Part shown: positions 4,012-40,596 of the stretch, in pieces
Layout of the letters: every line of letters starts with the position of its first letter
How positions within the stretch are numbered: the first letter of the stretch is position 1
NCBI GenBank assembly: GCA_018819165.1
Contig: JAHJQP010000173.1
Coordinates: forward strand, 1 to 40,596
Direction of reading: 5' to 3'
Source: Pseudomonadota bacterium
GTDB taxonomy: Bacteria; Desulfobacterota; Syntrophia; Syntrophales; UBA5619
DNA length: 40,596 nucleotides
Translations under genes and position numbers: made by a program
Notes under the pieces: generated by a model
Databases searched by the model: none
What the model was told of the DNA's origin: nothing
What the model saw: only the letters and a program-made list of their open reading frames with translations

Positions 4012-5487
<1,476 letters not shown>

Positions 5488-26401: not shown

Positions 26402-27313
26402 TCAGCGCAGGACCAGGCTGTATGACTTGATACGGAAAACCGGGTTGTAGGACTGCTTCGATTTCGCCAGATTGGGAACGTTCATGTCGCTTTCTTTATT
26501 GATATACAGGAATTCACTAAAGAGTCTTTTCGCGCATTCATTGTCGAGGAATTGATAGAGGCCCTTGAATTCGGAAAAAGCCTTTTCGAAATTGAGCGTC
26601 GCGGTAGTTCTGTTCAGGCGCGACCCGATCCCGAAAGCGGAGACTTCGCCGTCGATTCGGATCAGAATCCCCTTTGACTCAAGTCGATCCATATTTTTCA
26701 GGGTGGTGATCAAGGCGTTTTTTTCACAGGCCAGGCTGCTTTCCTGGTCCTCGCCGCAGGCGTATTGCTCGCACCAGATCTCCAGAAACTTCAGACATTC
26801 ATCGGTATATTCCGGGCGGATGGTCTGGACCTCCACGCGGTCCTTGCTCAGGTAATCCCGCGTAAACTGGTGGATGAGATTACGCTTCTTGGCGAACCTG
26901 TTTCCCCGGAGGCGAATCATGTCTTCTGCAAGATAGACGTAATCGGTGAATTCCTTCTGCTCCTCCACGGTAAAGTAGGAGTCGAGCTCTGAACGGTCCA
27001 GTTTTTCCAGGTAATCCCCCGGTGCATACCAGTACCCGTCGAATCCGAGCTTCCGGGCAAAATGGTGAAGTTCGGAAGGCGAAGGATACGCTTTTGAGGA
27101 AAGGGGAAGAATGAGATGCCTGTCGTTCGGATGATTTTCCTCTTCACCGGCGATGAAAAGGGTGCCGTCCGAGATGGTGTAAAGGGCCCTGTGCATCCGG
27201 CTGCTCCAGGCGATTAGGGATGCCAAAGAATAGATGCACAGGCTGTAGGGTTGTTCCTTAAAGAACACTTTCAGGATATCGTAATCGGAAACGTCAAGCT
27301 GTTTAAAGTTCAT
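26402..27313 (-). CDS. stand-alone DUF2156 / MprF C-terminal (lysyl-PG synthase-like, tandem GNAT fold) domain protein
   Basis: About 300 aa, soluble. N-terminus is FKEQPYSLCIYSLASLIAWS and the central segment is RGNRFAKKRNLIHQF, as I recall for this family. ATG 27313 overlaps the upstream stop (ATGA). Confidence 0.65.
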   Translation of the reverse strand: MNFKQLDVSDYDILKVFFKEQPYSLCIYSLASLIAWSSRMHRALYTISDGTLFIAGEEENHPNDRHLILPLSSKAYPSPSELHHFARKLGFDGYWYAPGDYLEKLDRSELDSYFTVEEQKEFTDYVYLAEDMIRLRGNRFAKKRNLIHQFTRDYLSKDRVEVQTIRPEYTDECLKFLEIWCEQYACGEDQESSLACEKNALITTLKNMDRLESKGILIRIDGEVSAFGIGSRLNRTTATLNFEKAFSEFKGLYQFLDNECAKRLFSEFLYINKESDMNVPNLAKSKQSYNPVFRIKSYSLVLR

Positions 27314-27798
27314 GGCTTCTTGATCAAAAGCATGGGAACCCAGGCGGTCATTTCTTGGAAACCGCTAAGGCGATAGAGGTTACAGGAGCCCGGTTCGGCG
27401 ATGAGCCCGATCCAGCTCAGGCCGTCGGCCTCCAGGCGTTCAAGGAGCGCCTGGAGAATAATCTTTCCGATCCCCTGTTTCCTGCGGGTGCTGAGGACAG
27501 CCAGATCCTGGATATAGGCATCGCTGATGCCGTCACTGATTGCCCTTCCCATCCCTATGATCTGGTCTCCCTCTGCGGCAACCACGAAACAGTGACTGCC
27601 CGAGATCAGCCGCGGGATCAGCTGCTGTCTGACTTCATCGGATGGGTTCCACCACCCCTGCGCTCGGTAGAGCTCGACGATCTGCCCGATCTGTTGTTCG
27701 GTGGGCGTCTGGAGAAAAATGCACTTTACCGTGCCGTCATTACTTAATGTCATGTCCCTTCGTCCGCAAGGTGTCTCCTGTTCTTTGCGGTCATGCAA
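27310..27798 (-). CDS. GNAT family N-acetyltransferase
   Basis: The acetyl-CoA-binding region is LAVLSTRRKQGIGKIILQALLERL (Q/RxxGxG/A type). The start is uncertain: either TTG 27798 (GGGAG 8 nt upstream) or ATG 27753. Confidence 0.75.
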   Translation of the reverse strand: MHDRKEQETPCGRRDMTLSNDGTVKCIFLQTPTEQQIGQIVELYRAQGWWNPSDEVRQQLIPRLISGSHCFVVAAEGDQIIGMGRAISDGISDAYIQDLAVLSTRRKQGIGKIILQALLERLEADGLSWIGLIAEPGSCNLYRLSGFQEMTAWVPMLLIKKP

Positions 27799-27934: not shown

Positions 27935-28735
27935 CTACAGCCACCGTTTCCGGCGACGGTAGGATTTGACCTCTGTATACGATTTGAGATTTCCCGCTGC
28001 CGACATGCCGAGGTAAAATTCCCGGATATCCGGGTTTTCACAGAGATCATCCGCAGACCCCTCCATGACGATCTTTCCGTTCTCCATCACGTATCCGTAA
28101 TGGGCGATCTGGAGGGCCATTCGGGCGTTCTGTTCGACGAGAACGATCGTGGTCCCCTCCTCTTCGTTGATCTGGCGGATGATCCGGAATATCTCCTTGA
28201 CGACCAGGGGCGCGAGCCCCAGGGACGGCTCGTCAAGGAGCAGCAGCTCGGGATGGGCCATCAGGGCGCGTCCCATGACCAGCATCTGGAGTTCACCGCC
28301 GCTGCAGTAACCGGCCAGCCCCCGGCGCCGCTCCCAGAGGGCGGGAAAGTAATGGTAGACCCTCTCCAGATCCTGCCGGTAGGGCTTTCCCCATCTCGTT
28401 GCCGTGCCGACGCGGAGATTCTCTTCAATCGTAAGGTACTTGAACGGCTGACGCCCTTCCAGGACCTGGATGATCCCATGCCGGGTGATCGTTTCCGGCG
28501 ACTGATTCTGGATCTCGCTTCCCTGATAGAGGATCGTCCCGTCCGTCACCTTGCCGTTTTCCGGCTTCAGGAGTCCGGACACCGCCTTGAGGGTCGTGGT
28601 CTTTCCCGCTCCGTTGCTTCCCAAGAGCGAGACGATGCGGTTCTTCTCAACGGAAAGCGAAACGCCCTTCAGCACCTGGATGACATCTGAATAGACGACG
28701 GAAATATTGTTCAATTGCAGGAGAATCCGGTCCAT
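27935..28735 (-). CDS. livF: HAAT-family ABC transporter ATP-binding protein (LivF-like)
   Basis: From ATG 28735 it reads MDRILLQLNNISVVYSD.... Walker A is GSNGAGKTT, the signature is CSGGELQML, and Walker B is LLLLDEPSLGLAP. Confidence 0.85.
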   Translation of the reverse strand: MDRILLQLNNISVVYSDVIQVLKGVSLSVEKNRIVSLLGSNGAGKTTTLKAVSGLLKPENGKVTDGTILYQGSEIQNQSPETITRHGIIQVLEGRQPFKYLTIEENLRVGTATRWGKPYRQDLERVYHYFPALWERRRGLAGYCSGGELQMLVMGRALMAHPELLLLDEPSLGLAPLVVKEIFRIIRQINEEEGTTIVLVEQNARMALQIAHYGYVMENGKIVMEGSADDLCENPDIREFYLGMSAAGNLKSYTEVKSYRRRKRWL

Positions 28736-28748
28736 AAAAAGAAACCCT

Positions 28749-29819
28749 TTAATAAGAGAACGGCCAGAGGCGGAAGTTCGAACGGATAATCCGCCATAAC
28801 TCCGCCAATCCGCGGGGCTCCAGGAGGATGAACAGGACGATGGCCAGTCCGAACACAAATTCCCTGAGGGGGGCTATGTTCAGCTCCGATGTCGAGAATA
28901 GGTCTGAATTCATCAGGAGGCCGGTCATGAAGCGCAGCGCTTCGTTGAGGAGCGTGATGAAAACGGCGCCGAAAATGGAACCGGAGATGCTTCCCAGCCC
29001 GCCGATGATGACCATGGCGATGTACTCCACGGAAAGGCCGAGATTGAAGGGCTCCGCCGTGATGCTGCCCATGTAGAATGCCCACAGGGCGCCAGCGAAG
29101 CCGGCGTAGAAGGAACTGATTCCGAAGGAGAGGAGCTTGTAGCGGAAGATCGGGATCCCCATCCCTTCCGCGGCTCTGTCGTTATCCCGGATGGCGATAA
29201 AGGCGCGTCCGTAACGGGTGCGAATCAGATTCACCGCTATCCAGACCATCCCGGCCAGGGAAATGAAAATGAGATAATAAAAACCGAGGTCGCCCCGGAG
29301 GGATAAGCCCAGAAGGCTGGCCGGCGGAAGCGTGATCCCCATGGTTCCTTTCGTGAGGGATTCCCAGTGGATCAGGACATACTCGATGATGAACTGGCCC
29401 GCCAGGGTCGCGATCGTCAGATAAAGTCCCTTCAGGCGGCCGGAAGGGATGCCGAAGATCATGCCGACCAGGGCGGTCGTCAGCCCGGCTGCCGGGATGC
29501 AGAGGAGCATCGGCAGATGGAGGGCGGTGGAGAAGATAGCCCCCGCATAGGCGCCGACACCGAAGAAGGCGCCGTGGCCAAGGGAGATCTGGCCGGTGAA
29601 ACCGATCAGGATGTTGAGGCCGATCACGGCAATGGCGGTAATGCCGATCATATTGAAGATATAGAGCATGTAGGGGCTTGCCGACAGGGGGACGAGCGTA
29701 ATGAGGAGCAGAATGCCGATCCCGGTCCAGATGCGCCCGAAATCGGTCGTAAAGACTGAAAGTTCCTGCTGATACCGTTCGCGGAAATTTCCGCAGGGAT
29801 GCATTTGGAGTTTTCTCAT
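28749..29819 (-). CDS. livM: HAAT-family ABC transporter permease (LivM-like)
   Basis: Polytopic membrane protein containing GQISLGHGAFFGVGAYA, which is typical of LivM. Confidence 0.85.
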   Translation of the reverse strand: MRKLQMHPCGNFRERYQQELSVFTTDFGRIWTGIGILLLITLVPLSASPYMLYIFNMIGITAIAVIGLNILIGFTGQISLGHGAFFGVGAYAGAIFSTALHLPMLLCIPAAGLTTALVGMIFGIPSGRLKGLYLTIATLAGQFIIEYVLIHWESLTKGTMGITLPPASLLGLSLRGDLGFYYLIFISLAGMVWIAVNLIRTRYGRAFIAIRDNDRAAEGMGIPIFRYKLLSFGISSFYAGFAGALWAFYMGSITAEPFNLGLSVEYIAMVIIGGLGSISGSIFGAVFITLLNEALRFMTGLLMNSDLFSTSELNIAPLREFVFGLAIVLFILLEPRGLAELWRIIRSNFRLWPFSY

Positions 29820-29822
29820 ATA

Positions 29823-30701
29823 TCAGACCCGTTCAATCTCCTTCAGTCCGAACAGACCGTAAGGTTTCAACAGCAGAATCAGTACCAGCACGATGTAGGG
29901 GACGACGTCGCGTAATGAAGGCGAAATATATCCGCCGGTGAATGTTTCCAGAAGCCCGATGATGATCCCGCCGATGATGGCGCCGCCGATACTGTCCAGT
30001 CCGCCGAGGATGACGACGGGGAAGACCTTGAGGCCGATCCCGGAGAGATCGTGGACGTTTACCCCGTTGATAATTCCCAGGACCATGCCGCTCATCCCGG
30101 CGACCAGCGCCGCGATCGCCCAGGAGAGGGCAAAGACCCGCTTGACGTGAACCCCGAGCGACAGAGCGGCTCTCTGGTTGTCCGCGACAGAGCGCATGTA
30201 GATCCCCTGGGAGGAGAATTTGAAGAACAGTCCAAAGAGGATCAGAAAAAGCGTTCCGATGATCAGTGTCGCCCCGTAGACCGGCGGGATTCTGATTATC
30301 TTCCAATCGATGCCCAGGGCTTTCGGCAGGAAATCGGGATAGGTGAAAAGATTGCCGCCCCAGATAAACAGGATCAGTCCCTTGAACATCGCTGCCAGGC
30401 CGACGGTCAGCATGACGACGAAGATCAGAGGTTCGCCGATAAGCGGCCGCAGGAAAATCCTCTCGATCAAGATCCCGAGCAGAAAGCAGCCGGCAAGCGC
30501 GAGAAGAAAGGAGAGGAGAATAGGAATCTTCGCCCAGGTCACGAAGGCCAGAAAGAAATAAGCCCCTATCGCGATGAGCTCTCCGTGGGCAAAGTTCAGC
30601 ACACTCGATGATTTGAAGATCATCACAAATCCCATCGCCGAGAGTCCATACAGGAAACCGACAGAGAGCCCACCGACCAAAAGCTGGATGAAAAAATCCA
30701 T
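29823..30701 (-). CDS. livH: HAAT-family ABC transporter permease (LivH-like)
   Basis: MDFFIQLLVGGLSVGFLYGLSAMGFVMIF...NFAHGEL is a typical LivH start. AAGGAAAGGG lies upstream of ATG 30701. Confidence 0.85.
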   Translation of the reverse strand: MDFFIQLLVGGLSVGFLYGLSAMGFVMIFKSSSVLNFAHGELIAIGAYFFLAFVTWAKIPILLSFLLALAGCFLLGILIERIFLRPLIGEPLIFVVMLTVGLAAMFKGLILFIWGGNLFTYPDFLPKALGIDWKIIRIPPVYGATLIIGTLFLILFGLFFKFSSQGIYMRSVADNQRAALSLGVHVKRVFALSWAIAALVAGMSGMVLGIINGVNVHDLSGIGLKVFPVVILGGLDSIGGAIIGGIIIGLLETFTGGYISPSLRDVVPYIVLVLILLLKPYGLFGLKEIERV

Positions 30702-30714
30702 GGATACCCTTTCC

Positions 30715-32643
30715 TTATAAAACCTCAATGACGCGAACGAGGGTATCGATCTCCCCGATCTGTCCGTCCCGATAGCGGATCTTGCCCTTTACACGGACCT
30801 CTTTCTCTGCGGTGTACATAGTCTCGATGAGCTTGAGGTAAAGGCCGTAGACAAAACGCCGGCGCACCTTGCCCGTCCTTGTCAATTCCTCGTCATCAGC
30901 GTCCAGAAGCTTGTAGAGCATGATAAATTTATGGATCTTCATCACCTCCGGAAGCTGTTCATTGACCTTCCGGACCTCTTTGAGGATCAGTTCCTCCACC
31001 GCCGTCTGCTGGGAGAGATCCATATAGGTCGTATAGGGAATCATTCTCTCTTCCGCCCAGCTTCCGGTATTGCCGAAATCGATGTTGATCATGGCGGTCA
31101 GGAAGGACCGTCCCTCTCCGAAGATGACCGCCTCCTTGATGAACGGGCTGAATTTCAGTCGGGTTTCGATGAAATCAGGGGAAAAGGCATCTCCGCTCTT
31201 GTTGCGGATGATCTCCTCCTTGCGGCCGATGATCATCAGATGGCCGTCCGGGTCGAGATACCCTGCATCGCCTGTCCTCAGCCAGCCCTGGGTGAATGCC
31301 GCCTCGGTAGCCTGATAATCCTGGTAATACCCCTGGAAGACGGCATGGCTGGAGACCAGCACTTCCTGGTCTTCCGAGATCCGGACCTGAACGCCGGGTA
31401 GAGGCGTTCCGACCGTTTCCGGCTTGACTTCCTCGTCCGGCTGGATCTGGAAGATTCCCCCTCCTTCGGTCAGCCCGTAACACTGCTTCAGGTTCAGACC
31501 GATCGCCCGGAAGAAACTGATCACGTCGGGACTGATGGGATGGCCTCCCGTGTAGGCGCTCAGGAAGTTCGCACAGCCGATCCGGTCGAGCAGGGGGCGA
31601 TATATAATCATGGCGGCCAGATGATGAAGCCCTCTGATGAGCGGCGGCGTCGGTTCCTTGCGAACCTGCCGGGACAGGACCGCCCGTCCGATGCGCTCGG
31701 CTTCGGTGAAGAGACGACGTTTGACCCAGCCCGCATCCCCCATCCGGACCCGGATCCGGGAAGCCAGTTCCTCCCAGAAACGGGACGAGGTGATGATCCG
31801 CGAGGGGCCGATATCCCGGAAGTCCTCCAGAACCGTTTCCGGTGTTTCCGGAAAGTTCATCGTCATCCCAGCGAAGAGCGCCACGCCCAAACCCCACATC
31901 TGATCGACAATCCAGGCCGGCGGCGAAATGGAAATCCAGTTCTCTCCTGCTTGAATGGAGACGGCCCTGATCCAGCTTTCCCCAATGGAGGTCAGGTTCC
32001 GGTGCGACAGCATGGCCAGTTTCGGCATACCCGTCGTGCCGGAGGTCTGGATCATCATGGCCGTTTCCTCGGGTTTTCCCCGGTTCAATTCGGTCGAAAA
32101 GAGATCGGGCCGATCGCAATCGAGTGCCTCCCCCCCGGAGAGCAGATCGCGGAAGGAAACCAGCCAGGGATCGTCTCCGCTGAAGCTCATTCCCGTCGGG
32201 TCGATATAGATGACGTTACGCACATGGCTGAGTTTCCCGCGGGCGGCGATCATCTTATCGACCTGCTCCTGGTCCTGGACAATGACAAAGGTTGCGCGGA
32301 TGCGGTTCAGAGAGGCCGACAGCTCCTCAACGACGGCCGACGTGAAGAGGTTCAGGGTGACGCCCCCAACCGCCTGAACTCCCAGTTCCGAAAAAAGCCA
32401 TTCGGGGTGATTGTCGGTGATCAATCCCACGGCTTCCCCGCGCCGGAAACCGAGGGCAACGAGCCCCAGACCGACTTGTCTTACGTAACGCAGATAGTCC
32501 TGCCAGTTATAGGTCTGCCAGATGCCGTAAGCCTTCTCCCGGATCGCTGCCCCGTTAGTGCCGAAGCGAGCCGCCTGAGCAGTTAGAATCTGGGGCAGCG
32601 TGCCCGTTAAGAAGGGAAGCTGTTTTTCTTTCTCCGCGTCCAA
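30715..32643 (-). CDS. AMP-forming acyl-CoA synthetase (long FadD-like form) embedded in the ABC operon
   Basis: The AMP-binding motif is MMIQTSGTTGMPKLAM, and the core also has YGLTEGGG and GWLRTGDAGYLD. The start is TTG 32643, with no nearby ATG. Confidence 0.8.
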   Translation of the reverse strand: MDAEKEKQLPFLTGTLPQILTAQAARFGTNGAAIREKAYGIWQTYNWQDYLRYVRQVGLGLVALGFRRGEAVGLITDNHPEWLFSELGVQAVGGVTLNLFTSAVVEELSASLNRIRATFVIVQDQEQVDKMIAARGKLSHVRNVIYIDPTGMSFSGDDPWLVSFRDLLSGGEALDCDRPDLFSTELNRGKPEETAMMIQTSGTTGMPKLAMLSHRNLTSIGESWIRAVSIQAGENWISISPPAWIVDQMWGLGVALFAGMTMNFPETPETVLEDFRDIGPSRIITSSRFWEELASRIRVRMGDAGWVKRRLFTEAERIGRAVLSRQVRKEPTPPLIRGLHHLAAMIIYRPLLDRIGCANFLSAYTGGHPISPDVISFFRAIGLNLKQCYGLTEGGGIFQIQPDEEVKPETVGTPLPGVQVRISEDQEVLVSSHAVFQGYYQDYQATEAAFTQGWLRTGDAGYLDPDGHLMIIGRKEEIIRNKSGDAFSPDFIETRLKFSPFIKEAVIFGEGRSFLTAMINIDFGNTGSWAEERMIPYTTYMDLSQQTAVEELILKEVRKVNEQLPEVMKIHKFIMLYKLLDADDEELTRTGKVRRRFVYGLYLKLIETMYTAEKEVRVKGKIRYRDGQIGEIDTLVRVIEVL

Positions 32644-32742
32644 AAAATGCCGTTTCCTTTCTTAGATCTCGGCGGTTGCACATAAAATGCGACTTTGTGA
32701 AGACCCCGCCAGCAAGGCAGAGCCGGCGGGTTGAGTCCCCGG

Positions 32743-33570
32743 TTAAATGGGATCCGCATCGCCGAGATAAGCCTTGACCACCTCCGGATGGCGGATGATC
32801 TCTTCCGGGGTTCCTTCCGTCAGTTTTACACCGAAATTCAGCACGACAATCCGCCGGGCGATGCTCATCACGATCGACATGTCGTGCTCAACGAGGATCA
32901 TCGTCTGCCCCCACGCCCGGTTCAGTTCCAGCAGAAAACGGACCATGTCTTCCTTCTCTTCGAGGTTCATGCCGGCGAAGGGTTCGTCAAGGACGAGAAG
33001 CGCCGGTTCAAGAGCAAGGGCGCGTCCCAGTTCCACCCGCTTCATCATCCCGTAAGGGAGGGAGCTTACCGGCTTGTTACGGAGGGACTGTATCTCGAGA
33101 AAGTCGATGATTTCCTCCAGGATCCGACGATGGCGTATCTCCTCTCTGCGGACGGACGGTCCAAAAAGACAGGCAAGCCCCAGCCCGTAACGGCAATGGA
33201 TATGGCGGGCAAGAAACAAGTTGGAAAGAACGGTCATCCCCGGAAAGAGCTCAATATTCTGGAATGTCCGGCCGATTCCGATCCGGACCAACTCATGCGG
33301 GTGGCGATGGGTGATATCCTCCCCGTTGAAAAGGATCTTTCCCTCCTGAGATCGATAGAATCCCGTGATGCAGTTGAGCAGACTGGTCTTCCCGGCGCCG
33401 TTGGGACCGATAACCGCGAGCAGTTCGCCGGTCCTGACCGAAAAATGAACATCGTCCAGGGCTATGACCCCGCCGAAACGGAGAGAAACCCCCCGAACTT
33501 CCAGTTCAGCCTGCTTTGCGTCCATATCGATTCGTTCGTATATGGACGGTTTCCCCCGGAACGCCTTCAT
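32743..33570 (-). CDS. livG: HAAT-family ABC transporter ATP-binding protein (LivG-like)
   Basis: From ATG 33570 (GAGGA 6 nt upstream) it reads ...LEVRGVSLRFGG. Walker A is GPNGAGKTS, and Walker B is LLVLDEPFAGMN. Confidence 0.85.
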   Translation of the reverse strand: MKAFRGKPSIYERIDMDAKQAELEVRGVSLRFGGVIALDDVHFSVRTGELLAVIGPNGAGKTSLLNCITGFYRSQEGKILFNGEDITHRHPHELVRIGIGRTFQNIELFPGMTVLSNLFLARHIHCRYGLGLACLFGPSVRREEIRHRRILEEIIDFLEIQSLRNKPVSSLPYGMMKRVELGRALALEPALLVLDEPFAGMNLEEKEDMVRFLLELNRAWGQTMILVEHDMSIVMSIARRIVVLNFGVKLTEGTPEEIIRHPEVVKAYLGDADPI

Positions 33571-33602
33571 GCCTTTTCCTCGTCCTTCCGCGCCCGATGC
33601 TG

Positions 33603-33629
33603 AAAGCCCCGCCCATCGGGCGGGGCTTT
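33603..33629 (-). terminator. intra-operon GC-rich hairpin just after the substrate-binding-protein gene
   Basis: AAAGCCCCGCCC-ATC-GGGCGGGGCTTT forms a 12-bp perfect stem with a 3-nt loop, about 18 nt past the SBP stop. On the minus strand only UUUCA follows, so it is a weak terminator or a 3'-end stabiliser. Confidence 0.5.
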
Positions 33630-33646
33630 TCGAAAAGAATTGTTTG

Positions 33647-34846
33647 TTACTTCTGGAGGCTGATCTTTTCCTTCCCGGGGACATAGAAATTGGTCAGAGG
33701 GATATAGGAACCATCCTCCTTCACTTGGACGATCCGCGCCTTGAAAGAGGCGCCGTGATCCGTCGGGGTATAGGTTACGGCGGGGACCAGACCGCCGAAA
33801 TCCTCCTCGCGGAAGGATTCCATGGCGCGGTTGATCGTTTCCCGATTGACCTCCTTGAATTTTTCTTGGGCGCGGATCATCGCCCTCTCCATGATCATCC
33901 CCACGACGACCCCCTCCCAGTAGGAGGCATCGAATGTATCGACGGTTTTATAGCGTGTCCACAATTCCTGCATCACTTTCATTCCCGGATTCTTGTCGGC
34001 GGGAAGACCGCCTGGAAACTGAATGCGGAGACGATCCCGGATCAGCCCCTGCCCCATCTTGAAGAAATCGGGATCGGTCGAAGTCCAGGTCCCTAAAAAC
34101 GGTGGATCGTAACCGATCCGGTCCGCGCTTCGGAAAGCGCTAATGATCGCGGCTGGTAGAATCTGCATGAATATGTACTCGGCGCCGCTTTTCTGGAGAC
34201 GGAGAAGCTCCGTGGTCAGATCGACTGTTTTCGTAGGAAATTCCTCAATCGCAACAATGTTGATGTTATTTTTCGCCGCATAATCCTGGCTCGGTTTATG
34301 GATGGAGCGCCCGTAAGCGTTGTTGTAGGTCAGAAGCCCCACCTTCGGTGGCTCTTTGCCTTTGTGAATGGCGAGGATATAGTCGAGGACGGCTTCGCAA
34401 TCCAACCGGTAACTTCCGAAAGGGAGATACATGTATTCGAACGGCGGCTCCAGGATCTCCCAGCTGGTGGAATAGTTAATCGTCGGGATCTTATATTGCT
34501 GGATGATCGGCTTGGCTGCCAGCCCCTCGCCGGCGCTCCAGGTGGCAATCATGTCCACCTCGTCCTGAACCGCGAATTTCCGGACGGCGGCGACCGCTTC
34601 GGGGACCTTGTAGGCGGTATCGACAAGTATCATTTCGATCTTCTGTCCGGCCACACCGCCTTTGACTTCATTCACATACTGGAAATAGTCACGCTGCCCC
34701 TTGGCATGGAACTGTCCCCAGGTCGATGCAGGACCTGTCATGTTGATGGCAGATCCAACCTTGATGTTCTTTGCCATTCCCGCATTCGTCCAGGCCAGGA
34801 CGAAGGCCGCTGCTGCCAAAAGGATGATTCTGTTTAGTCTGCGCAT
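33647..34846 (-). CDS. HAAT-family periplasmic substrate-binding protein (LivK/LivJ-like)
   Basis: The signal peptide is MRRLNRIILLAAAAFVLAWTNAGMA. It is followed by a type I periplasmic binding fold of about 375 aa. SD AAAGGAGGGG lies upstream of ATG 34846. Confidence 0.85.
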   Translation of the reverse strand: MRRLNRIILLAAAAFVLAWTNAGMAKNIKVGSAINMTGPASTWGQFHAKGQRDYFQYVNEVKGGVAGQKIEMILVDTAYKVPEAVAAVRKFAVQDEVDMIATWSAGEGLAAKPIIQQYKIPTINYSTSWEILEPPFEYMYLPFGSYRLDCEAVLDYILAIHKGKEPPKVGLLTYNNAYGRSIHKPSQDYAAKNNINIVAIEEFPTKTVDLTTELLRLQKSGAEYIFMQILPAAIISAFRSADRIGYDPPFLGTWTSTDPDFFKMGQGLIRDRLRIQFPGGLPADKNPGMKVMQELWTRYKTVDTFDASYWEGVVVGMIMERAMIRAQEKFKEVNRETINRAMESFREEDFGGLVPAVTYTPTDHGASFKARIVQVKEDGSYIPLTNFYVPGKEKISLQK

Positions 34847-34860
34847 TTTTCCCCTCCTTT

Positions 34861-34891
34861 AAAATAAAAAAACCGTGAAAACATTCCACGG
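34861..34891 (-). terminator. second, weaker terminator-like hairpin directly upstream of the SBP ribosome-binding site
   Basis: Minus strand: CCGUG-GAAUGUUUU-CACGG followed by UUUUUUUAUUUU. It has the same CCGTGG...CACGGTTTTTT flanks as the first hairpin. Confidence 0.4.
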
Positions 34892-34898
34892 CTTCCAT

Positions 34899-34933
34899 AA
34901 AAAACCGTGGGCGACGATAAGGTCTGCCCACGG
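34899..34933 (-). terminator. rho-independent terminator inside the leader of the ABC/CoA-ligase operon
   Basis: Minus strand: CCGUGGGC (34933..34926) pairs with GCCCACGG (34912..34905). Three further inner pairs are possible (GAC/GUC). UUUUUU follows at 34904..34899. Confidence 0.65.
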
Positions 34934-35013
34934 CCGATGACCCATACGGGTTAAAAGAACGGCGGGCAGACCCCGATAAAATAGCTAAAAAAGCCGCTAA
35001 AACCGCCCCGCCG
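34921..35013 (-). promoter_or_regulatory. candidate antiterminator / anti-antiterminator helices of an attenuator
   Basis: GGUCUGCCCGC (34972..34962) can pair with GUGGGCAGACC (34931..34921): 11 bp including one G-U. That helix consumes the 5' arm of the terminator. CGGCGGG (35013..35007) can instead pair with CCCGCCG (34966..34960), giving 7 G-C pairs. Confidence 0.45.
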
Positions 35014-35058
35014 AAAATACCCCATCTCCCGCTTGTCCACCATTTGCCATATCTCCAT
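34951..35058 (-). CDS. candidate Phe-rich leader peptide (35 aa)
   Basis: My translation is MEIWQMVDKREMGYFRRGGFSGFFSYFIGVCPPFF*. It has 7 Phe (6 TTT + 1 TTC), 2 Tyr and 1 Trp. It is too short for the ORF track. There is no clear SD, and the ATG lies 7 nt after the candidate -10 (possibly leaderless). Confidence 0.35.
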   Translation of the reverse strand: MEIWQMVDKREMGYFRRGGFSGFFSYFIGVCPPFF

Positions 35059-35065
35059 GGCCCGG

Positions 35066-35095
35066 CCTATAAAACAGCCGCCGTTGAAATGTCAA
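35066..35095 (-). promoter_or_regulatory. candidate sigma-70 promoter of the leader/ABC operon (TTGACA-18 nt-TATAGG)
   Basis: Minus strand: TTGACA at 35095..35090 and TATAGG at 35071..35066. Confidence 0.4.
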
Positions 35096-35178
35096 GCGAA
35101 TTATTTGGCGGTTTGGTGAAAAATCAAGGACCTCTCCGCATGTTGCGCCTGATCTTGCGGGAAAAGCGGGTTTCCCGA

Positions 35179-36546
35179 TCAGGAGCGGATTCCCAGCTTC
35201 TCGCTCCGGTAATGAAGAGAATCATAATTGATTCCGAGTAGTTCGGCGGCCCTGGTTTTTGAGCCCTCTGCCTTTTTGAGAGCCTTCTCGATCAGGCTCT
35301 TTTCGGTTCTTGCGAGCTCGTCACTGAGGTTGATCCCGGAATCCGGAAAATCGGGAATGGGTATGGCCTCGGTTTTTTTCACATTTTCGGACAGAATAAG
35401 ATTTTCCGGAAGGATGATGTTTGAGGTCTCCAGGGCGATGCTCCGTTCAATGATGTTCTCTAACTCACGGATATTACCGGGAAAAGGATACTGCATCAGC
35501 AATTCCAGGGCATAAGCTGATATCATCTTTATTTCCTTACCGAATTCAAGAGAATACTTTTCTATAAAATACTTAGTCAGGATCGGGATGTCTTCCTTGC
35601 GCTCCCGGAGGGGCGGCAGTTGAATGGGGATGACGTTGAGTCGGTAATAGAGGTCTTCCCTGAACGATCCGGATTTTACATTATCCGCCAGATTCTGATT
35701 TGTTGCGGAGATGATGCGGACGTCGACCTGGATATCTTTCGCTCCGCCGACGCGACGGAAGGTCTTCTCTTGGACAACCCGAAGAAGCTTGACCTGAAGA
35801 AGGGGAGGGAGTTCTGCAATTTCATCCAAAAAAACGGTTCCCCCGCGAGCTGCCTTGAAAAGTCCGGCCTTGTCTGAATAGGCTCCGGTGAAAGCCCCTT
35901 TGATGTAACCGAAAAGCTCGCTTTCCAGGAGATTCTCTGAAATACCGCCGCAGTTGATGACCAAAAAAGGTCTCTCTCTCCGAGAACTGTTTTCATGAAT
36001 CGCCCTGGCCACCAGCTCCTTGCCTGTTCCGCTCTCGCCAAGGATCAGGACATTGGCCGGAGTATTCGCCACCTTTTTGATGGTCGCATACACCTTGAGC
36101 ATCTCACGACTGTTGCCGATCATGTTCCCGAAACGGACCGTCTCCCCCACCTCTTTGAGAAATAGCGATTCGTCCCGCTTCACCCCTTTTTTGGTCAGGG
36201 CGTTTTGGATTATCCGCTTGAGATCTTCGATTGCGAAATCCTTTTCGATATAATCGTAAGCCCCCTCCTTCATGGCTGTTAGGGCCGTTTCCCCGGACGC
36301 ATAGGCCGTAATCAGAATGACCATGGTTTCGGGAGAAATATCCTTGATTTCCCGGAGGAAACCGATCCCGTCCATCTTAGGCATCCTGAGATCCGTTATG
36401 ACCAAATCGATCTTTTCCTTTCGACACTGGTTGAGGGCTTTTCCGCCATCGCCGACGGTGGTGACCCTGTATCCCTCCCGGGTCAGCATGATCTCTAGAA
36501 ATTCCCTCATCCCCTGGTCGTCATCAACCACGAGGATCCTGGCCAT
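35179..36546 (-). CDS. sigma-54-dependent response regulator (NtrC/PilR class)
   Basis: REC domain (ILVVDDD..., DLVITDLRMPKMDG). The AAA+ domain has Walker A GESGTGKE and the sigma-54 contact motif GAFTGA. The C-terminal Fis-type HTH is TRAAELLGINYDSLHYR. Confidence 0.9.
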   Translation of the reverse strand: MARILVVDDDQGMREFLEIMLTREGYRVTTVGDGGKALNQCRKEKIDLVITDLRMPKMDGIGFLREIKDISPETMVILITAYASGETALTAMKEGAYDYIEKDFAIEDLKRIIQNALTKKGVKRDESLFLKEVGETVRFGNMIGNSREMLKVYATIKKVANTPANVLILGESGTGKELVARAIHENSSRRERPFLVINCGGISENLLESELFGYIKGAFTGAYSDKAGLFKAARGGTVFLDEIAELPPLLQVKLLRVVQEKTFRRVGGAKDIQVDVRIISATNQNLADNVKSGSFREDLYYRLNVIPIQLPPLRERKEDIPILTKYFIEKYSLEFGKEIKMISAYALELLMQYPFPGNIRELENIIERSIALETSNIILPENLILSENVKKTEAIPIPDFPDSGINLSDELARTEKSLIEKALKKAEGSKTRAAELLGINYDSLHYRSEKLGIRS

Positions 36547-36564: not shown

Positions 36565-38262
36565 CTAAGCAGCAACCGTTTCCGCAGGGCTAACCCGGCA
36601 GGGAAACCATATCCGGCAGATGGTTCCTTCCGCTGATTTGCTTTGAACATCGATTTTCCCCTCGTATCCTTCAACGAGCCGGCTGACCACCGCCAACCCC
36701 AGCCCTGTCCCAGTTTCCCGGGTCGTATAAAAAGGTTCGAAGATCTTTGTGAGATCCTGCCTGTCGATGCCGCAGCCCGTATCGATGATCCTGATTTCGA
36801 CGCCTTCTGTTTCATTGATCTTTGCGGGACGCGCTTTAATCGTCAGAACGCCTCCTTGAGGCATTGCCTGAACCGCATTGAGAACCAGATTCCAGATGAC
36901 CTGTCTGATTTCTGTCTTATTGGCATTGATGGAAAGCGGCGTGTCCGGCAGACGCATGACGACTTCCAGAAATTCATGCCAAGCCTTAATGCAGCGAAGG
37001 GACTCTACTACTTCCCTGATCGTACTGATGACGTCGACTTCCTCACGGATGCCGGGGGCGGGTCTCGCCATAAGGAGAAAATCCTTCAGGAAGTTTTCCA
37101 GCTGATCCTTCCCCCGGAGGATGATCTGCATCAGTTTTTCATTGGTGTCCTTGTGGGAAGGATCCTGCATGAGCATCTGAATCGAGCCGCTGATGGAGGA
37201 AAGCGGATTCCGGATCTCATGCGCAAGACCGGCTGCCACCTCGCCGATGAAGGCAAGCCTCCGGCTCTTTTCAAGGGATTCCCTCATTTCGCTGATTTCC
37301 GTCAAATCCTGGAAGATAACGATGTTCCCGATCTCGACGTTTTCATGATCCCGGAGGGGAGAGACGGAGCAACTCAGGAGCAGGCTCCTGCCATCACCAG
37401 TGTGAAATGGGGTTTCGAAATGGGTTTTCGCAACCGGTCTGTACTCAGCGGCGTTCTGTTTTCCCCTGAGGACGGGAAAGTCCGGGAAAACATCGGAGAA
37501 ATATTGGTTTATGACCTTACTGAAAGAGAAACCGGTGATTTCGGCGGCCGCGCGGTTGAGGGACTTGATCTTCCCATCCTTATTGACGGTCAGGATGCCT
37601 GTGTCCACCGACTCGATGATGCTCCGGTGCAGAAGATTGAGTTGATCGAAGTCGCTCTGCTTCCTGGCCAGAAGGGTTCTGGTCTGCTTCTCCTTTTCTA
37701 CGGCGAAGCTCGTTAGAAAGGCAATCAGATAGAAGGAAAGGACGTGGGTGGAGATCCTGGTGATAAAATAGCCGGTGTCCAGAAGCTTGTCATATACGGG
37801 AATCGAATGGAGGGGATAAATCACCCCGTAGAACTCCAGGTTTGCAAAAAGACCATATAAGATGGCGGCGGCGGAGGCGATGACCAGTCCTCCCCTTCTC
37901 CCGAGAAAGAGGACCGAATAGATGATGACGAGCGGATAAAAGGCCGAATAAATGCTGCGGATGCCGCCCGTGGCATATACCATGCCGGTGATTAGAAGGA
38001 CATCGCAGAGACTCTGAGTGTAGATATTCAACGAAAGGTTCCGTACATATTTCAAAAGGAGAAGGTAGAGGATAAAGAGAATATAGGTCAGAATGATCGT
38101 CCTGAATAATGCGGTTGCCGAGATCGCCGAAAAGGGCTCCATCCCCTTGATGTCGATAAACGCGGCAATCCCCAGAAGGAAGGTTACGATGGCCACTCGC
38201 GCAAGCATCAGCAAGCGGAGGCGGGATGTCGTGTTTTCCGGAAGCATGGACTTATCGGTCAT
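36565..38262 (-). CDS. polytopic sensor histidine kinase (multi-TM N-domain + PAS + HisKA + HATPase; PilS-like architecture)
   Basis: About 6 hydrophobic segments occupy the first ~190 aa. A PAS-like segment follows (IIESVDTGILTVNKDGKIKSLNRAAAEITG). The H-box is GLAHEIRNPLSSI, the N-box is NLVLNAVQAM, and the G-boxes are DTGCGI and GTGLGLAV. ATG 38262 is preferred over GTG 38271. Confidence 0.85.
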   Translation of the reverse strand: MTDKSMLPENTTSRLRLLMLARVAIVTFLLGIAAFIDIKGMEPFSAISATALFRTIILTYILFILYLLLLKYVRNLSLNIYTQSLCDVLLITGMVYATGGIRSIYSAFYPLVIIYSVLFLGRRGGLVIASAAAILYGLFANLEFYGVIYPLHSIPVYDKLLDTGYFITRISTHVLSFYLIAFLTSFAVEKEKQTRTLLARKQSDFDQLNLLHRSIIESVDTGILTVNKDGKIKSLNRAAAEITGFSFSKVINQYFSDVFPDFPVLRGKQNAAEYRPVAKTHFETPFHTGDGRSLLLSCSVSPLRDHENVEIGNIVIFQDLTEISEMRESLEKSRRLAFIGEVAAGLAHEIRNPLSSISGSIQMLMQDPSHKDTNEKLMQIILRGKDQLENFLKDFLLMARPAPGIREEVDVISTIREVVESLRCIKAWHEFLEVVMRLPDTPLSINANKTEIRQVIWNLVLNAVQAMPQGGVLTIKARPAKINETEGVEIRIIDTGCGIDRQDLTKIFEPFYTTRETGTGLGLAVVSRLVEGYEGKIDVQSKSAEGTICRIWFPCRVSPAETVAA

Positions 38263-38437
38263 TTTTCTCACTGACTCAGGGGGCGGCAGGTATCAAAGAA
38301 TGGTTGCCTGCCGGATTAACCCCCAAGTTACTTTCAGTGCCGCGAAAAGTCAACATCGTTGATGGAAAAGAATGATCTCCTAATACATAACCCCGCGACC
38401 TCCTCTCCGCAAGGTTTCCGCCGACAGAAGAGTTGTT

Positions 38438-38535: not shown

Positions 38536-40596
38536 ATGCCAAGACCATTCCTCCCTCTACTGATTGCGCTCATCGCGGGAATCGCGTTCTCCAGTAATTT
38601 CGCGCTTCAAGACTTCCCAGTTCAGATCGGCTTGGTTGGGGGGCTGCTCCTGATCCTCCTGTCGCGCGGCCGGAAATGGGACCGGCTTTATTACCCCTCC
38701 CTGTTCATTTCCCTGTTTCTTCTCGGCATCCTCGACATGAATCTGTACCTTCATCCCCACATCGCGGGAAACCATATCCGCCATTTTGCGGGAGATGAAA
38801 AAATCCATGCAGAAGGGATGATCTGCGAGAACCCTCAAGTATCGCCTGAGAAGACGGAGCTGGTCGTCTCGGCCTTCCGAATCATCCGCAACGGGCAATA
38901 TGTACCGGTCTCGGGGCGTGTCCTCCTGAAAATCCGCGAGCCCTACCCCCTCCACTACGGGGATTTCATCCGTTTCCATACCCGACTCAGGGCGCCGCAC
39001 AATTTCAACAATCCCGGCGGCTTCGATTACGAAAGATATCTGCTTTTCCGCGGTATTCTCGTGCGTGGAAACATTAATGACGCCTCGGGATTTATCGTTC
39101 TGCGCCGGGAAAGGGGAAATCCAGTCCGGACGAGGCTCGAGCATTTCCGTGACTGGATCCGGGAGACCATTATGCAAGCGGCGCCGGGAACAGAGGGAAG
39201 GATCATTCAGGCGCTGATCCTCGGCGACCAGAAGGAGATCCCGAGAGAGGTCATGGAAAAGTTCAACCGGACGGGCACCACCCACATCATTGCCATCTCC
39301 GGGTTCCATGTCGGCATCGTTGCGGTATTTGCCCTCTTTCTGGCGCGCTTGTGCCTGAAAACGGAGTATCTGCTCCTGAGATGGAACATGGCCAAAATCT
39401 CGATGCTTTTTGCGATCCTCGTCGTCATCATTTACACTTTCATTGCCGGAGCGGGCATCTCGGTCGTCCGGGCCTCCATCATGGTGACGACCTTCATGTG
39501 CGCCATCCTCCTCAACCGTGAAGGCGATCTTTACAACACCCTGGCCCTGGCCGCTTTTTTCATTCTGATCATCACACCCTATTCGCTTTTCGATGTCTCC
39601 TTTCAGCTCTCCTTTATCGCCGTGGCATCGCTTCTTTTCCTGACGCCGAAACTTGTCGCCCTGTTGCCTCCGATTCCTCCTGACGGACACTCGAATTCGC
39701 TGAAGGAACCGTTTCTTCGTCATATTAAGAAAGCCGTCCGTGGCGTCGCGATCTTTTTCTTCGTTTCCCTGAGCGCCACGCTCGGCACTCTGCCTTTGAT
39801 CCTCCTCTACTACAACCGGCTTTCACTTATCACCCTCGCGGCGAACCTCCTCGTCGTTCCCCTGCTCGGCGTCCTCACGATTCCCCTTTGCCTGCTGATC
39901 ATCCTTGCAGTGCCGATCTCCGCGGCGCTGGCCGCTTTCATCATCCGGATTGCCGAACTGCCCGTCGGACTCGCCCTTTTTTTCATAGACCGGCTTGCGG
40001 CCCTGTCCTTTGCGGCGGTATTTGTCCCCACCCCCACCCTTCCGGAAATCGTGGCCTTCTATCTCCTGCTGATCTCGGCCGGTTTCTTCCTTGACCGGTT
40101 GAGCGCCAGGGGAGAGAAAGCGCCCTCACGAAAAATGTTCCTCCTGGGGAAAGTCCTTCCCGCGCTTCTGATCTTTTTTTTCATCAGCGACGGAATCCAC
40201 TTTTATCGGCAGGGACTACAGCGGGGAAGACTCACCCTGACCGCCGTGGATGTCGGCCAGGGGAGCGCCGTTCTGATCCGTTTCCCCGGCGGGAAGCGGA
40301 TGCTCGTAGATGGCGGCGGATTCTACGATGACACCTTCGATGTCGGCAAGTATGTCCTGGCCCCGTACCTCTGGCATGAACGGATCACCCGGATCGATAC
40401 GGTGGTCCTGACGCACCCCGATCGGGATCACTTGCAGGGGCTCTTGTTCATTCTTGAAAATTTTCACGTGCGCGAGGCGTGGATTAACGGGGAAACATCC
40501 GACACGGAGCTATATCTTTCCTTCCTCCGGATCATCCGGGAGAAGGGGATTGTCCTGCGGACCCTATCGTCCAGGACCCCCGAGACGGAGATTTCC
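38536..40596 (+). CDS. comEC: DNA internalisation-related competence protein ComEC/Rec2 (3' end beyond the window)
   Basis: Absent from the ORF track because it has no stop inside the window. My translation from ATG 38536 stays open for 687 codons. It reads MPRPFLPLLIALIAGIAF..., then YERYLLFRGI, NRTGTTHIIAISGFHVG (competence domain), then the metallo-beta-lactamase part LTAVDVGQGSAVLIRFPGGKRMLVDGGG...VLTHPDRDHLQG. Confidence 0.85.
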   Translation, partial: MPRPFLPLLIALIAGIAFSSNFALQDFPVQIGLVGGLLLILLSRGRKWDRLYYPSLFISLFLLGILDMNLYLHPHIAGNHIRHFAGDEKIHAEGMICENPQVSPEKTELVVSAFRIIRNGQYVPVSGRVLLKIREPYPLHYGDFIRFHTRLRAPHNFNNPGGFDYERYLLFRGILVRGNINDASGFIVLRRERGNPVRTRLEHFRDWIRETIMQAAPGTEGRIIQALILGDQKEIPREVMEKFNRTGTTHIIAISGFHVGIVAVFALFLARLCLKTEYLLLRWNMAKISMLFAILVVIIYTFIAGAGISVVRASIMVTTFMCAILLNREGDLYNTLALAAFFILIITPYSLFDVSFQLSFIAVASLLFLTPKLVALLPPIPPDGHSNSLKEPFLRHIKKAVRGVAIFFFVSLSATLGTLPLILLYYNRLSLITLAANLLVVPLLGVLTIPLCLLIILAVPISAALAAFIIRIAELPVGLALFFIDRLAALSFAAVFVPTPTLPEIVAFYLLLISAGFFLDRLSARGEKAPSRKMFLLGKVLPALLIFFFISDGIHFYRQGLQRGRLTLTAVDVGQGSAVLIRFPGGKRMLVDGGGFYDDTFDVGKYVLAPYLWHERITRIDTVVLTHPDRDHLQGLLFILENFHVREAWINGETSDTELYLSFLRIIREKGIVLRTLSSRTPETEIS

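Follow-up and report, generated by a model that had tools for sequence, protein, structure and literature searches.

What controls the operon in which the genes of a HAAT-family ABC transporter stand together with an acyl-CoA ligase gene, when a 332-nucleotide (nt) gap parts its first gene from the response regulator gene upstream? The question is raised by contig JAHJQP010000173.1 (assembly GCA_018819165.1) of a Pseudomonadota bacterium that GTDB places in the Syntrophales and whose genome is of Syntrophaceae/Smithella type; positions 1 to 40,596 were analysed (40,596 nt, hereafter the window). The gap precedes, on the minus strand, the gene for a periplasmic substrate-binding protein (SBP), and a first-pass annotation, made from the letters alone, had taken it for a Phe-sensing attenuator of the trp/phe type. 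We conclude that the element is very probably a ribosome-mediated (leader-peptide) transcription attenuator which responds to the supply of charged tRNA-Phe. That proposal is now supported by the conservation of the Phe codons, by covariation, by folding around a masked ribosome, and by sister elements with Trp or Tyr codons. The in silico features of an attenuator are present together: an upstream open reading frame (uORF) with a Shine-Dalgarno (SD) sequence, conserved Phe codons, an intrinsic terminator, an antiterminator sharing a strand with it, and a suitable stall geometry. The response to Phe, as well as termination and read-through in cells, we infer from sequence. Coordinates are collected in Table 1.

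The leader begins with the promoter TTGACA-18-TATAGG, which the first-pass annotation had recognised and which we find again. Of 73 orthologous leaders, 65 have a promoter-like TTGAYN-N16-19-TAnAnn site ahead of the uORF, and the -10 block is kept as TATAG or TATAT in alignment A1. Judging from the promoter position, transcription would be expected to start near 35058-35060. The 35-codon reading frame that had been proposed from ATG 35058 exists, together with its TAA stop, but its start was placed too far upstream. ATG 35058 is in the same frame as the uORF, overlaps the SD sequence, and sits about where transcription should begin. In the relatives, GGAG, AGAGG or AAGGAG sits 6-12 nt before the leader ATG; by homology with their SD sequence and start, the start in the window is ATG 35043, leaving 30 codons. 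The public gene call in a near-identical contig (L204) chose the identical 30-aa frame. Given the Phe frequency of 4.4% in the window, seven Phe in 30 codons has a binomial P of 2.5e-4, and none of 20,000 composition-matched shuffles contained at least seven in-frame Phe codons.

Orthologous leaders were collected by an SBP search with one genome per species, which gave 80 loci, all from metagenome-assembled genomes (MAGs) labelled Syntrophales, Syntrophaceae, Smithella or 'Deltaproteobacteria'; labels such as L026 denote retrieved orthologous or scaffold-bearing loci. About 75 of the 80 have a recognisable leader. Its shared parts are a sigma-70-type promoter, an SD sequence with a uORF of 17-32 codons bearing a Phe run, segment 2, and the terminator; across loci, segment 2 (GGUCUGCC) pairs either with segment 1 or with the 5' arm of the terminator (CCGUGGGCAGA...GCCCACGG-Un). 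A uORF with SD sequence and start was found in 62 of 64 aligned leaders, 19-32 codons long (27-32 except in two), with 4-8 Phe and the core pattern F-F-x-F-F-S-F. In the codon alignment, each of five near-invariant Phe columns holds 3-8 TTC among TTT, with no CTT or TCT, and changes at the first or second codon position are essentially absent. The N-terminal half varies freely, as do the flanking residues and the peptide length. The short frame and its Phe codons, whose conservation among orthologous leaders the first-pass annotation had put forward as a test, thus passed it, with synonymous TTT/TTC variation against a variable remainder.

Further support comes from distant loci, where short uORFs of 17-18 aa end right after 4-5 Phe codons (e.g. 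MAIELINRNSINFFFFG and MAHYVSLTISSSFFFFFG). These variants share only the Phe run with the long ones; what has been conserved is thus the run of Phe codons, not a peptide. The place of the stop codon depends on the type: long uORFs always have it four codons beyond V-C, short ones immediately ahead (5') of segment 2, and those of the Trp type described below right behind V-C-P. A terminating ribosome would cover segment 2 in each of these positions. UCUGCC of segment 2 is nearly invariant. In the window's clade, the Pro-Pro of the V-C-P-P encoded there (34960-34966, minus strand) coincides exactly with segment 2; leaders of the Smithella clade read V-C-L instead. Translation is known to pause at Pro-Pro, and the ribosome might be kept on segment 2 in this way.

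As for the RNA, the segments named in the first-pass annotation, namely CGGCGGG, CCCGCCG and the 11-bp partners of 2:3, are all found on the minus strand where they had been placed, as is terminator 1 with its U6 tract, which is also conserved. The helix energies in the window are -28.1 kcal/mol for 2:3, -21.6 for 3:4 (terminator 1) and -19.1 for 1:2. The two terminator hairpins dominate the minimum-free-energy (MFE) and centroid folds of the window leader; the single-sequence MFE of the whole leader shows the terminated state only and, with a modest z-score of -2.3, is not decisive alone. The terminator scan reported the second hairpin, and otherwise a 4:5 pairing (34910-34886) in place of terminator 1. 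Chance is thus excluded mainly because of conservation.

Pairing was counted on A2, a 75-sequence alignment of the core, with slid partner strands and 500 shuffles as controls. RNAalifold on the long alignment gave the terminator only, and the alternative helices were tested explicitly. For 3:4, 97.3% of cells are paired across the 75 leaders, compared with 27-49% in the slid controls; compensatory changes (AU/GC, GC/AU, CG/UA, UA/CG) occur at 5 of 10 pairs, with 39 cells changed on both sides. For the antiterminator, taken as 2:3 with its enclosed hairpin, the figure is 82.8% (89% in the 2:3 core; slid controls 29-41%), with GC/GU/AU changes at a column which also covaries within the terminator; the inner enclosed helix has 73% of cells paired in relatives and both-side changes at 6 of 7 pairs. 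The covariation score of either structure was reached by 0 of 500 shuffles, in line with the alternative 2:3 and 3:4 pairings first proposed. In addition, the three segments change together. L026, L031, L042 and L072 carry CCGUAGGUAGACC in segment 3, CCUACCUACGG in segment 4 and GGUCUGCCUAC in segment 2, and L067 and L079 have the set GGUCUACC, GGGUAGACC and UCUACCCGCGG. Changes of this kind would be expected only where segment 3 has to pair with segment 2 as well as with segment 4. For 1:2, measured on A1, 65% of cells are paired (slid controls 29-46%), and compensatory changes occur at five pairs, among them C-G/U-A, G-C/A-U and G-C/U-A between CGGCGGG:CCCGCCG of the window's clade and UAUCAGG:CCUGAUA of Smithella. 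An origin from a repeat or a miniature inverted-repeat transposable element was rejected, since the window contains a single copy of the segment-3 motif and a single match to the covariance model R1, which was built from A2.

The effect of a ribosome was modelled by folding the leaders with a 28-nt footprint made unpairable; for the co-transcriptional case, the transcripts of 62 leaders were cut just before segment 4. In these cut transcripts, 2:3 forms in 54 of 62 leaders when the ribosome stalls with the first core Phe codon in the A site, in 45 with a stall at the middle core Phe, in 8 at the last, and in none with the ribosome at the stop codon. For the full-length window leader, the model puts terminator 1 at a probability of 0.70 if no ribosome is present; stalls at the first or middle core Phe lower it to 0.03-0.06, and a ribosome at the last Phe or the stop raises it to 0.98-0.99. 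Hence the idea that full translation favours the terminator is borne out in the model. The companion idea, that stalling at the Phe codons frees 2:3, stands for the early and middle codons but needs restricting: which codons are effective depends on the footprint.

We propose the following course of events. The sigma-70-type promoter would start a leader transcript of roughly 160-190 nt, and a ribosome would translate the 30-codon uORF while RNA polymerase advances. With Phe-tRNA plentiful, the ribosome would pass the Phe codons onto segment 2 (GUC UGC CCG CCG) and the stop 7 nt beyond; segment 2 would then be covered, or captured by segment 1 after ribosome release. With segment 2 unavailable, 3:4 would pair and transcription would end at U6 (34904-34899), terminator 2 serving as a back-up. 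With Phe-tRNA scarce, the ribosome would stall in the Phe run upstream of segment 2, covering segment 1 and leaving segment 2 free to pair with segment 3 once this is made; the resulting antiterminator, of -28 kcal/mol, would block terminator 1. The freed segment 4 may then pair with segment 5 and disable terminator 2, so that polymerase would enter the transporter/ligase operon.

The second hairpin with its U7, which the first-pass annotation had noted as related to the first, is indeed present, but it is a clade-specific tandem terminator and not a universal part of the element: it was found in about 20-27 of 77 leaders, which belong to the window's clade and to certain neighbouring clades, and is absent in Smithella. 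The CCGUGG/CCACGG core of terminator 1 recurs in its stem, which is why segment 4 with its U-tract can pair with segment 5. In the window, this 4:5 hairpin (11 bp) has -13.5 kcal/mol, compared with -13.3 kcal/mol for the 5:6 terminator. The 'domino' step, whereby freed segment 4 traps segment 5 before segment 6 is made, we infer, and the equilibrium model backs it partly. As a separate observation, Smithella-clade leaders (L030, L036, L049, L055, L063 and others) carry a small conserved hairpin, GCCAUUAUUAUGGC, directly 3' of the U9 tract of terminator 1.

Sister loci, in which the scaffold of segments 2, 3 and 4 goes with a run of aromatic codons, were found by a pattern scan of metagenome contigs, by model R1, and by look-ups of IorA homologues. 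The pattern scan was loose, giving at least 120 stretches, mostly chance; 10 among the matches listed carried the full scaffold by a pattern filter, and R1 recovered one further locus, L191. In L162, L184/L207 (the same contig), L205 and L206, the uORF has a Trp run and is followed by iorA, iorB, livH, livM, livG, livF, one or two PaaK-type ligases and an SBP gene; the iorA of L184 matches TIGR03336 with 648 bits, and one of these loci is from a Syntrophaceae MAG. The arrangement looks like a Trp-controlled operon for indoleacetate salvage. The single contig L191 bears two elements, a Trp-run uORF before an anthranilate phosphoribosyltransferase-type (trpD-like) gene, and a Phe/Tyr-run uORF before genes for DAHP synthase, prephenate dehydrogenase and prephenate dehydratase. 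The Trp runs before trpD-like and iorAB genes comprise 3-5 Trp codons. L138 has a Tyr run with tandem terminators, before a paralogous and distant (23% identity) HAAT SBP gene with permeases; segment 2 is read there in a different frame, which shows that the constraint behind V-C lies on the RNA. Two more loci complete the set, L185 with a Phe run before a gene for a 514-aa acyl-CoA ligase, and L168 with a Trp run before a 3-hydroxyacyl-CoA-dehydrogenase-like gene cluster. In the biosynthetic cases, the codon run agrees with the pathway of the downstream genes. These sister elements argue strongly for the sensing of aminoacyl-tRNA through translation, and are the strongest evidence to be had short of experiment.

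Table 1. Positions of the leader features, the surrounding genes and the related leaders; coordinates refer to the window unless a locus is named.
Feature	Position	Strand	Basis or remark
-35 hexamer TTGACA	35090-35095	minus	read from sequence
-10 hexamer TATAGG	35066-35071	minus	read from sequence; 18-nt spacer to -35
SD of leader ORF, GGAG	35052-35055	minus	homology; 9 nt upstream of ATG 35043
Leader ORF (uORF), MVDKREMGYFRRGGFSGFFSYFIGVCPPFF, 30 codons, 7 Phe	34951-35043	minus	homology and public gene call; TAA at 34953-34951
Core regulatory Phe run	34978-35001	minus	F15 (35001-34999), F18-F19 (34992-34987), F22 (34980-34978)
Further Phe codons	F10, 35016-35014; F29-F30, 34959-34954	minus	
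Segment 1, CGGCGGG	35007-35013	minus	pairs with 3' part of segment 2 (moderate support); anti-antiterminator
Segment 2, GGUCUGCCCGCCG	34960-34972	minus	pairs with segment 1 or 3; encodes V-C-P-P of leader
Part of segment 2 complementary to segment 1, CCCGCCG	34966-34960	minus	
11-bp partner, segment 2 side, GGUCUGCCCGC	34972-34962	minus	
11-bp partner, segment 3 side, GUGGGCAGACC	34931-34921	minus	
Small hairpin ACCC-GUAU-GGGU enclosed by 2:3	34940-34951	minus	predicted fold
Segment 3, CCGUGGGCAGACC	34921-34933	minus	5' arm of terminator 1 and antiterminator partner of segment 2
Terminator 1 loop, segment 4 and U6	34899-34920	minus	folding, covariation
Segment 4, GUC-GCCCACGG	34915-34905	minus	GCCCACGG itself 34912-34905
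Terminator 1 hairpin, CCGUGGGC/GCCCACGG	34933-34905	minus	then U6 at 34904-34899
Terminator 2, segments 5 and 6, GGAAGCCGUGGAA-UGU-UUUCACGGUUUUU and U run	34866-34896	minus	scan, fold; hairpin 34896-34868, then U7
SD of SBP gene, AGGAGG	34853-34858	minus	read from sequence
Gap between response regulator and SBP genes (attenuator site), 332 nt	34847-35178	minus	
Regulated operon as a whole	27935-34846	minus	gene order also found in relatives
HAAT-family periplasmic SBP	33647-34846	minus	Pfam and NCBIfam scans
LivG-like ATPase	32743-33684	minus	Pfam and NCBIfam scans
FadD-like AMP-forming acyl-CoA ligase, 642 aa	30715-32643	minus	Pfam and NCBIfam scans
LivH-like permease	29823-30728	minus	Pfam and NCBIfam scans
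LivM-like permease	28749-29819	minus	Pfam and NCBIfam scans
LivF-like ATPase	27935-28858	minus	Pfam and NCBIfam scans
NtrC-type sigma-54 response regulator	35179-36546	minus	ends 332 nt before SBP gene
PilS-like histidine kinase (6TM_PilS and PAS)	36565-38271	minus	upstream of gap
Trp-type leaders (runs WGWWWW, WWWWW; e.g. MGKNKLTFWGWWWWKNQGGEVCP, MGSRILNLWWWWWGKKRGGVCP)	L205:5690-5960; L206:5790-5960; L162:3990-4132		
L191, first element, MAMIDENGLYWWWGKRGRGLPDV	L191:20-250		
L191, second element, MGVMVKTFGKAFYLFFYYFAAMVCPFGWG	L191:1560-1760		
L138 leader, Tyr run (LYYYYGY)	L138: about 4440-4620	minus	
L038 leader region	L038:2755-3001		

Several observations weigh against an attenuator that senses Phe. 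The support for 1:2 is moderate, with many cells unpaired and the alignment register shifting in places. In the per-codon scan of the window at equilibrium, stalls at F10 and F18 release 2:3, and stalls at F15, F19 and F22 keep the terminator. Leaders of the Smithella clade invariably form the terminator at equilibrium and switch only in the cut-transcript model; the switch there would therefore be kinetic. Terminator 2 has a probability of 0.67-0.99 in the modelled states and is thus mostly formed, and in several clades 5:6 is more stable than 4:5 by 4-6 kcal/mol. In pheL of E. coli, the Phe codons stand closer together than here. L038, a MAG of Syntrophus aciditrophicus, keeps the promoter and gene order and has neither a Phe uORF nor the terminator at this position; the attenuator looks degenerate or lost in it, and this apparent loss in a model species may explain how the element went unnoticed. 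Lastly, as to the gene products, the 642-aa ligase matches only generic fatty-acid-CoA ligase models of NCBIfam, with scores under their cut-offs, and the closest solved relative of the SBP in the PDB, 3LKB, is annotated as a branched-chain amino-acid binding protein, so that PDB and NCBIfam matches were uninformative as to the substrate of the transporter.

Could the uORF act through its peptide rather than its codons? A ligand-sensing arrest peptide of the TnaC/ErmCL type would stall on a small molecule such as an aryl acid or free Phe and use the same RNA switch, which works with any cause of stalling; moreover, the Pro-Pro of VCPP falls on segment 2 in the window's clade. The peptide, however, is unconserved beyond the codon run, the versions of 27-32 aa and those of 17-18 aa (ending NFFFFG) having only the Phe run in common, and V-C reflects the RNA constraint seen in L138. 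Trp and Tyr runs on the same scaffold before genes of Trp or aromatic biosynthesis are, in turn, a signature of codon and tRNA sensing, which makes an arrest peptide very unlikely. Much the same evidence bears on a functional small hydrophobic protein, for instance a transporter-associated membrane peptide whose overlap with the hairpins is incidental. The product is indeed hydrophobic and aromatic-rich and was called as a gene in one assembly; but a protein free to vary in its N-terminal half and in length from 17 to 32 aa, which keeps only the Phe run and the RNA-constrained codons and gives way to WWWW or YYYY peptides in sister elements, is a very improbable one.

The remaining explanations dispense with the uORF. 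The hairpins, being good intrinsic terminators, might be tandem terminators of the upstream pilS/pilR-like operon, whose sigma-54-type regulator gene ends 332 nt before the SBP gene, or belong to a small RNA, and the transporter might have its own unregulated or sigma-54 start. An attenuated leader could act as a small RNA, as the attenuated leader transcript rnTrpL does in Sinorhizobium (PMC6614838). Yet between terminator 2 and the start codon there are only some 20 nt, too few for a promoter; no -24/-12 element (TGGCAC-N5-TTGCW, up to three mismatches) occurs within 34847-35178, and a conserved sigma-70-like promoter precedes the uORF instead. Where the regulator gene lies at a distance of 2.4 kb or is missing, the leader still stands beside the SBP gene, and the conservation of the uORF and of 2:3 would be left unexplained. 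We therefore hold this explanation to be highly unlikely. As for the T-runs, they could be phased A/T tracts of bent DNA or protein-binding enhancer repeats, with the reading frame a by-product of U-rich sequence: T-tracts lie at 35017, 35002, 34992 and 34981, spaced 10-15 nt apart, and TTT/TTC triplets, 3-4 of them, also occur in the other two frames. Against this, T-to-C changes fall only at third positions of the Phe frame; the frame, the start with its SD sequence and the stop position are conserved; the T-runs are replaced by runs of TGG or of TAT/TAC on the same scaffold in relatives; and the shuffles do not reproduce the Phe count. Phased tracts are hence the least credible explanation of all.

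How does this attenuator compare with known ones? Leader-peptide attenuation is a textbook mechanism, but nearly all documented cases are biosynthetic or tRNA-synthetase operons from phyla that have been studied well. The E. coli pheA and pheST attenuators (pheL; Rfam Phe_leader) are alike in having a Phe-run uORF, mutually exclusive 1:2, 2:3 and 3:4 helices (1:2 with moderate support here), a terminator before the first gene, and a stall at Phe codons that leads to the antiterminator. They differ in sequence and structure, there being no Rfam match here, and in the peptide, which has 14-15 aa in pheL and 27-32 aa with interspersed Phe here. The lineage is Syntrophales and not Gammaproteobacteria, the target is an ABC transporter with an acyl-CoA ligase and not pheA or pheST, and part of the present family has a second, tandem terminator. 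With trpL of E. coli and Sinorhizobium, it shares ribosome-mediated attenuation driven by a codon run, and the sister elements even carry Trp codons; the difference from trpL is that one scaffold (segment 2 GUCUGCC, segment 3 CCGUGGGCAG) serves here for Phe, Tyr or Trp runs. To our knowledge, the enterobacterial attenuators, taken individually, have no recognisable sequence relationship.

T-box leaders of Firmicutes similarly turn a shortage of charged tRNA into antitermination before amino-acid supply genes, including transporters, but there the leader binds tRNA, whereas the sensor here would be a ribosome on the uORF; no T-box match was obtained. In the long mgtA and mgtCBR leaders of Salmonella (PMC3641672), translation of a short ORF with critical codons selects between stem-loops and controls a transporter, and tandem elements occur; those leaders sense Mg2+, proline or ATP and not an aromatic amino acid, and no homology is involved. 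Rfam gave no match in the whole window at the gathering score, and in 34700-35300 at E <= 10 it gave only chance-level, unrelated families, none of them a leader or T-box family; in the open literature, we found no description of the element or of attenuation in Syntrophales. Thus the mechanism is classical, and the RNA family, its lineage and its target genes appear to be undescribed. Three traits are unusual: the reuse of a scaffold for three amino acids, the choice of transporter, ligase and indolepyruvate ferredoxin oxidoreductase (IOR) operons as targets, and a second terminator in tandem, of which the 5' arm is open to capture by the 3' arm of the first. This would make it a new and well-supported attenuator family in uncultured syntrophic Deltaproteobacteria (Syntrophales), in which the re-equipping of one scaffold for Phe, Tyr and Trp amounts to a natural 'codon swap' experiment backing the mechanism.

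What, then, would the operon do for the cell? A switch turned on by Phe starvation implies that the operon helps to supply Phe. It might do so by importing an aryl acid such as phenylacetate, activating it with CoA and feeding it to IOR-dependent reductive carboxylation to phenylpyruvate, a tentative proposal to which we give slightly less than an even chance; the simple alternative would be uptake of Phe itself. Aryl acids feed a second, IOR-dependent route to aromatic amino acids, as related in a passage of PMC4162585 that cites Porat et al., and rumen microbes are able to form Phe from phenylacetate (PMC7356843). The route is known from methanogens (including Methanococcus maripaludis) and rumen bacteria, IOR and PaaK-type ligases being the enzymes that turn aryl acids into arylpyruvates (PMC4162585, PMC7356843). 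It resembles the present system in that iorA-iorB lie, with genes for an ABC transporter and PaaK-type ligases, in the operons under Trp-type sister attenuators. The combination of transporter, PaaK-type ligases and IOR in those operons fits the aryl-acid proposal, as does the joining of a Phe run to an acyl-CoA ligase gene in L185. In L134, a Smithella-like contig, the last gene of the Phe-leader operon (minus strand) directly follows the LivF-like gene and encodes a PaaK-family (phenylacetate-CoA-ligase-like) protein of 417 aa; no PaaK-family gene occupies that position in the window. Against the proposal, the window contains no IOR gene and the ligase of its operon is FadD-like, not PaaK-like, and so the link is by analogy only.

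On a wider scale, Syntrophales, and probably related Thermodesulfobacteriota, may possess a regulon of Phe, Tyr and Trp attenuators built on one scaffold and placed over shikimate and trp genes as well as aryl-acid salvage, with the window operon as its Phe module; we would again stop a little short of calling this probable. If true, phenylacetate, 4-hydroxyphenylacetate and indoleacetate would be salvaged by means of HAAT-type ABC import, acyl-CoA ligases and IOR, and the window operon would be the Phe-specific uptake and activation module, turned on by a shortage of Phe-tRNA. The leader would offer a regulatory handle on poorly annotated operons of the 'branched-chain amino-acid transporter plus long-chain acyl-CoA ligase' kind, pointing to Phe supply, and, taken with the Trp-controlled iorAB-transporter-PaaK operons, it points to a regulated assimilation of aryl acids in methanogenic consortia. 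It also suggests a cheap and testable annotation rule, namely that the codon run of the leader predicts the substrate specificity of the operon.

Some features of the neighbourhood may be added. The genes for the PilS-like kinase and the NtrC-type regulator lie directly upstream of the gap, an arrangement kept in many relatives. Since the gap holds no -24/-12 promoter, the target of this pair may lie elsewhere, and the inverted repeats were for the same reason dropped as candidate enhancer or upstream activating sites. Neither Pfam nor NCBIfam gave a match for the 388-aa ORF at 38557-39723 (minus strand). Downstream of the transporter operon, at 26402-27798 on the minus strand, lies a gene pair for a GNAT acetyltransferase and a stand-alone LPG_synthase_C protein (DUF2156, similar to the C-terminal part of MprF).

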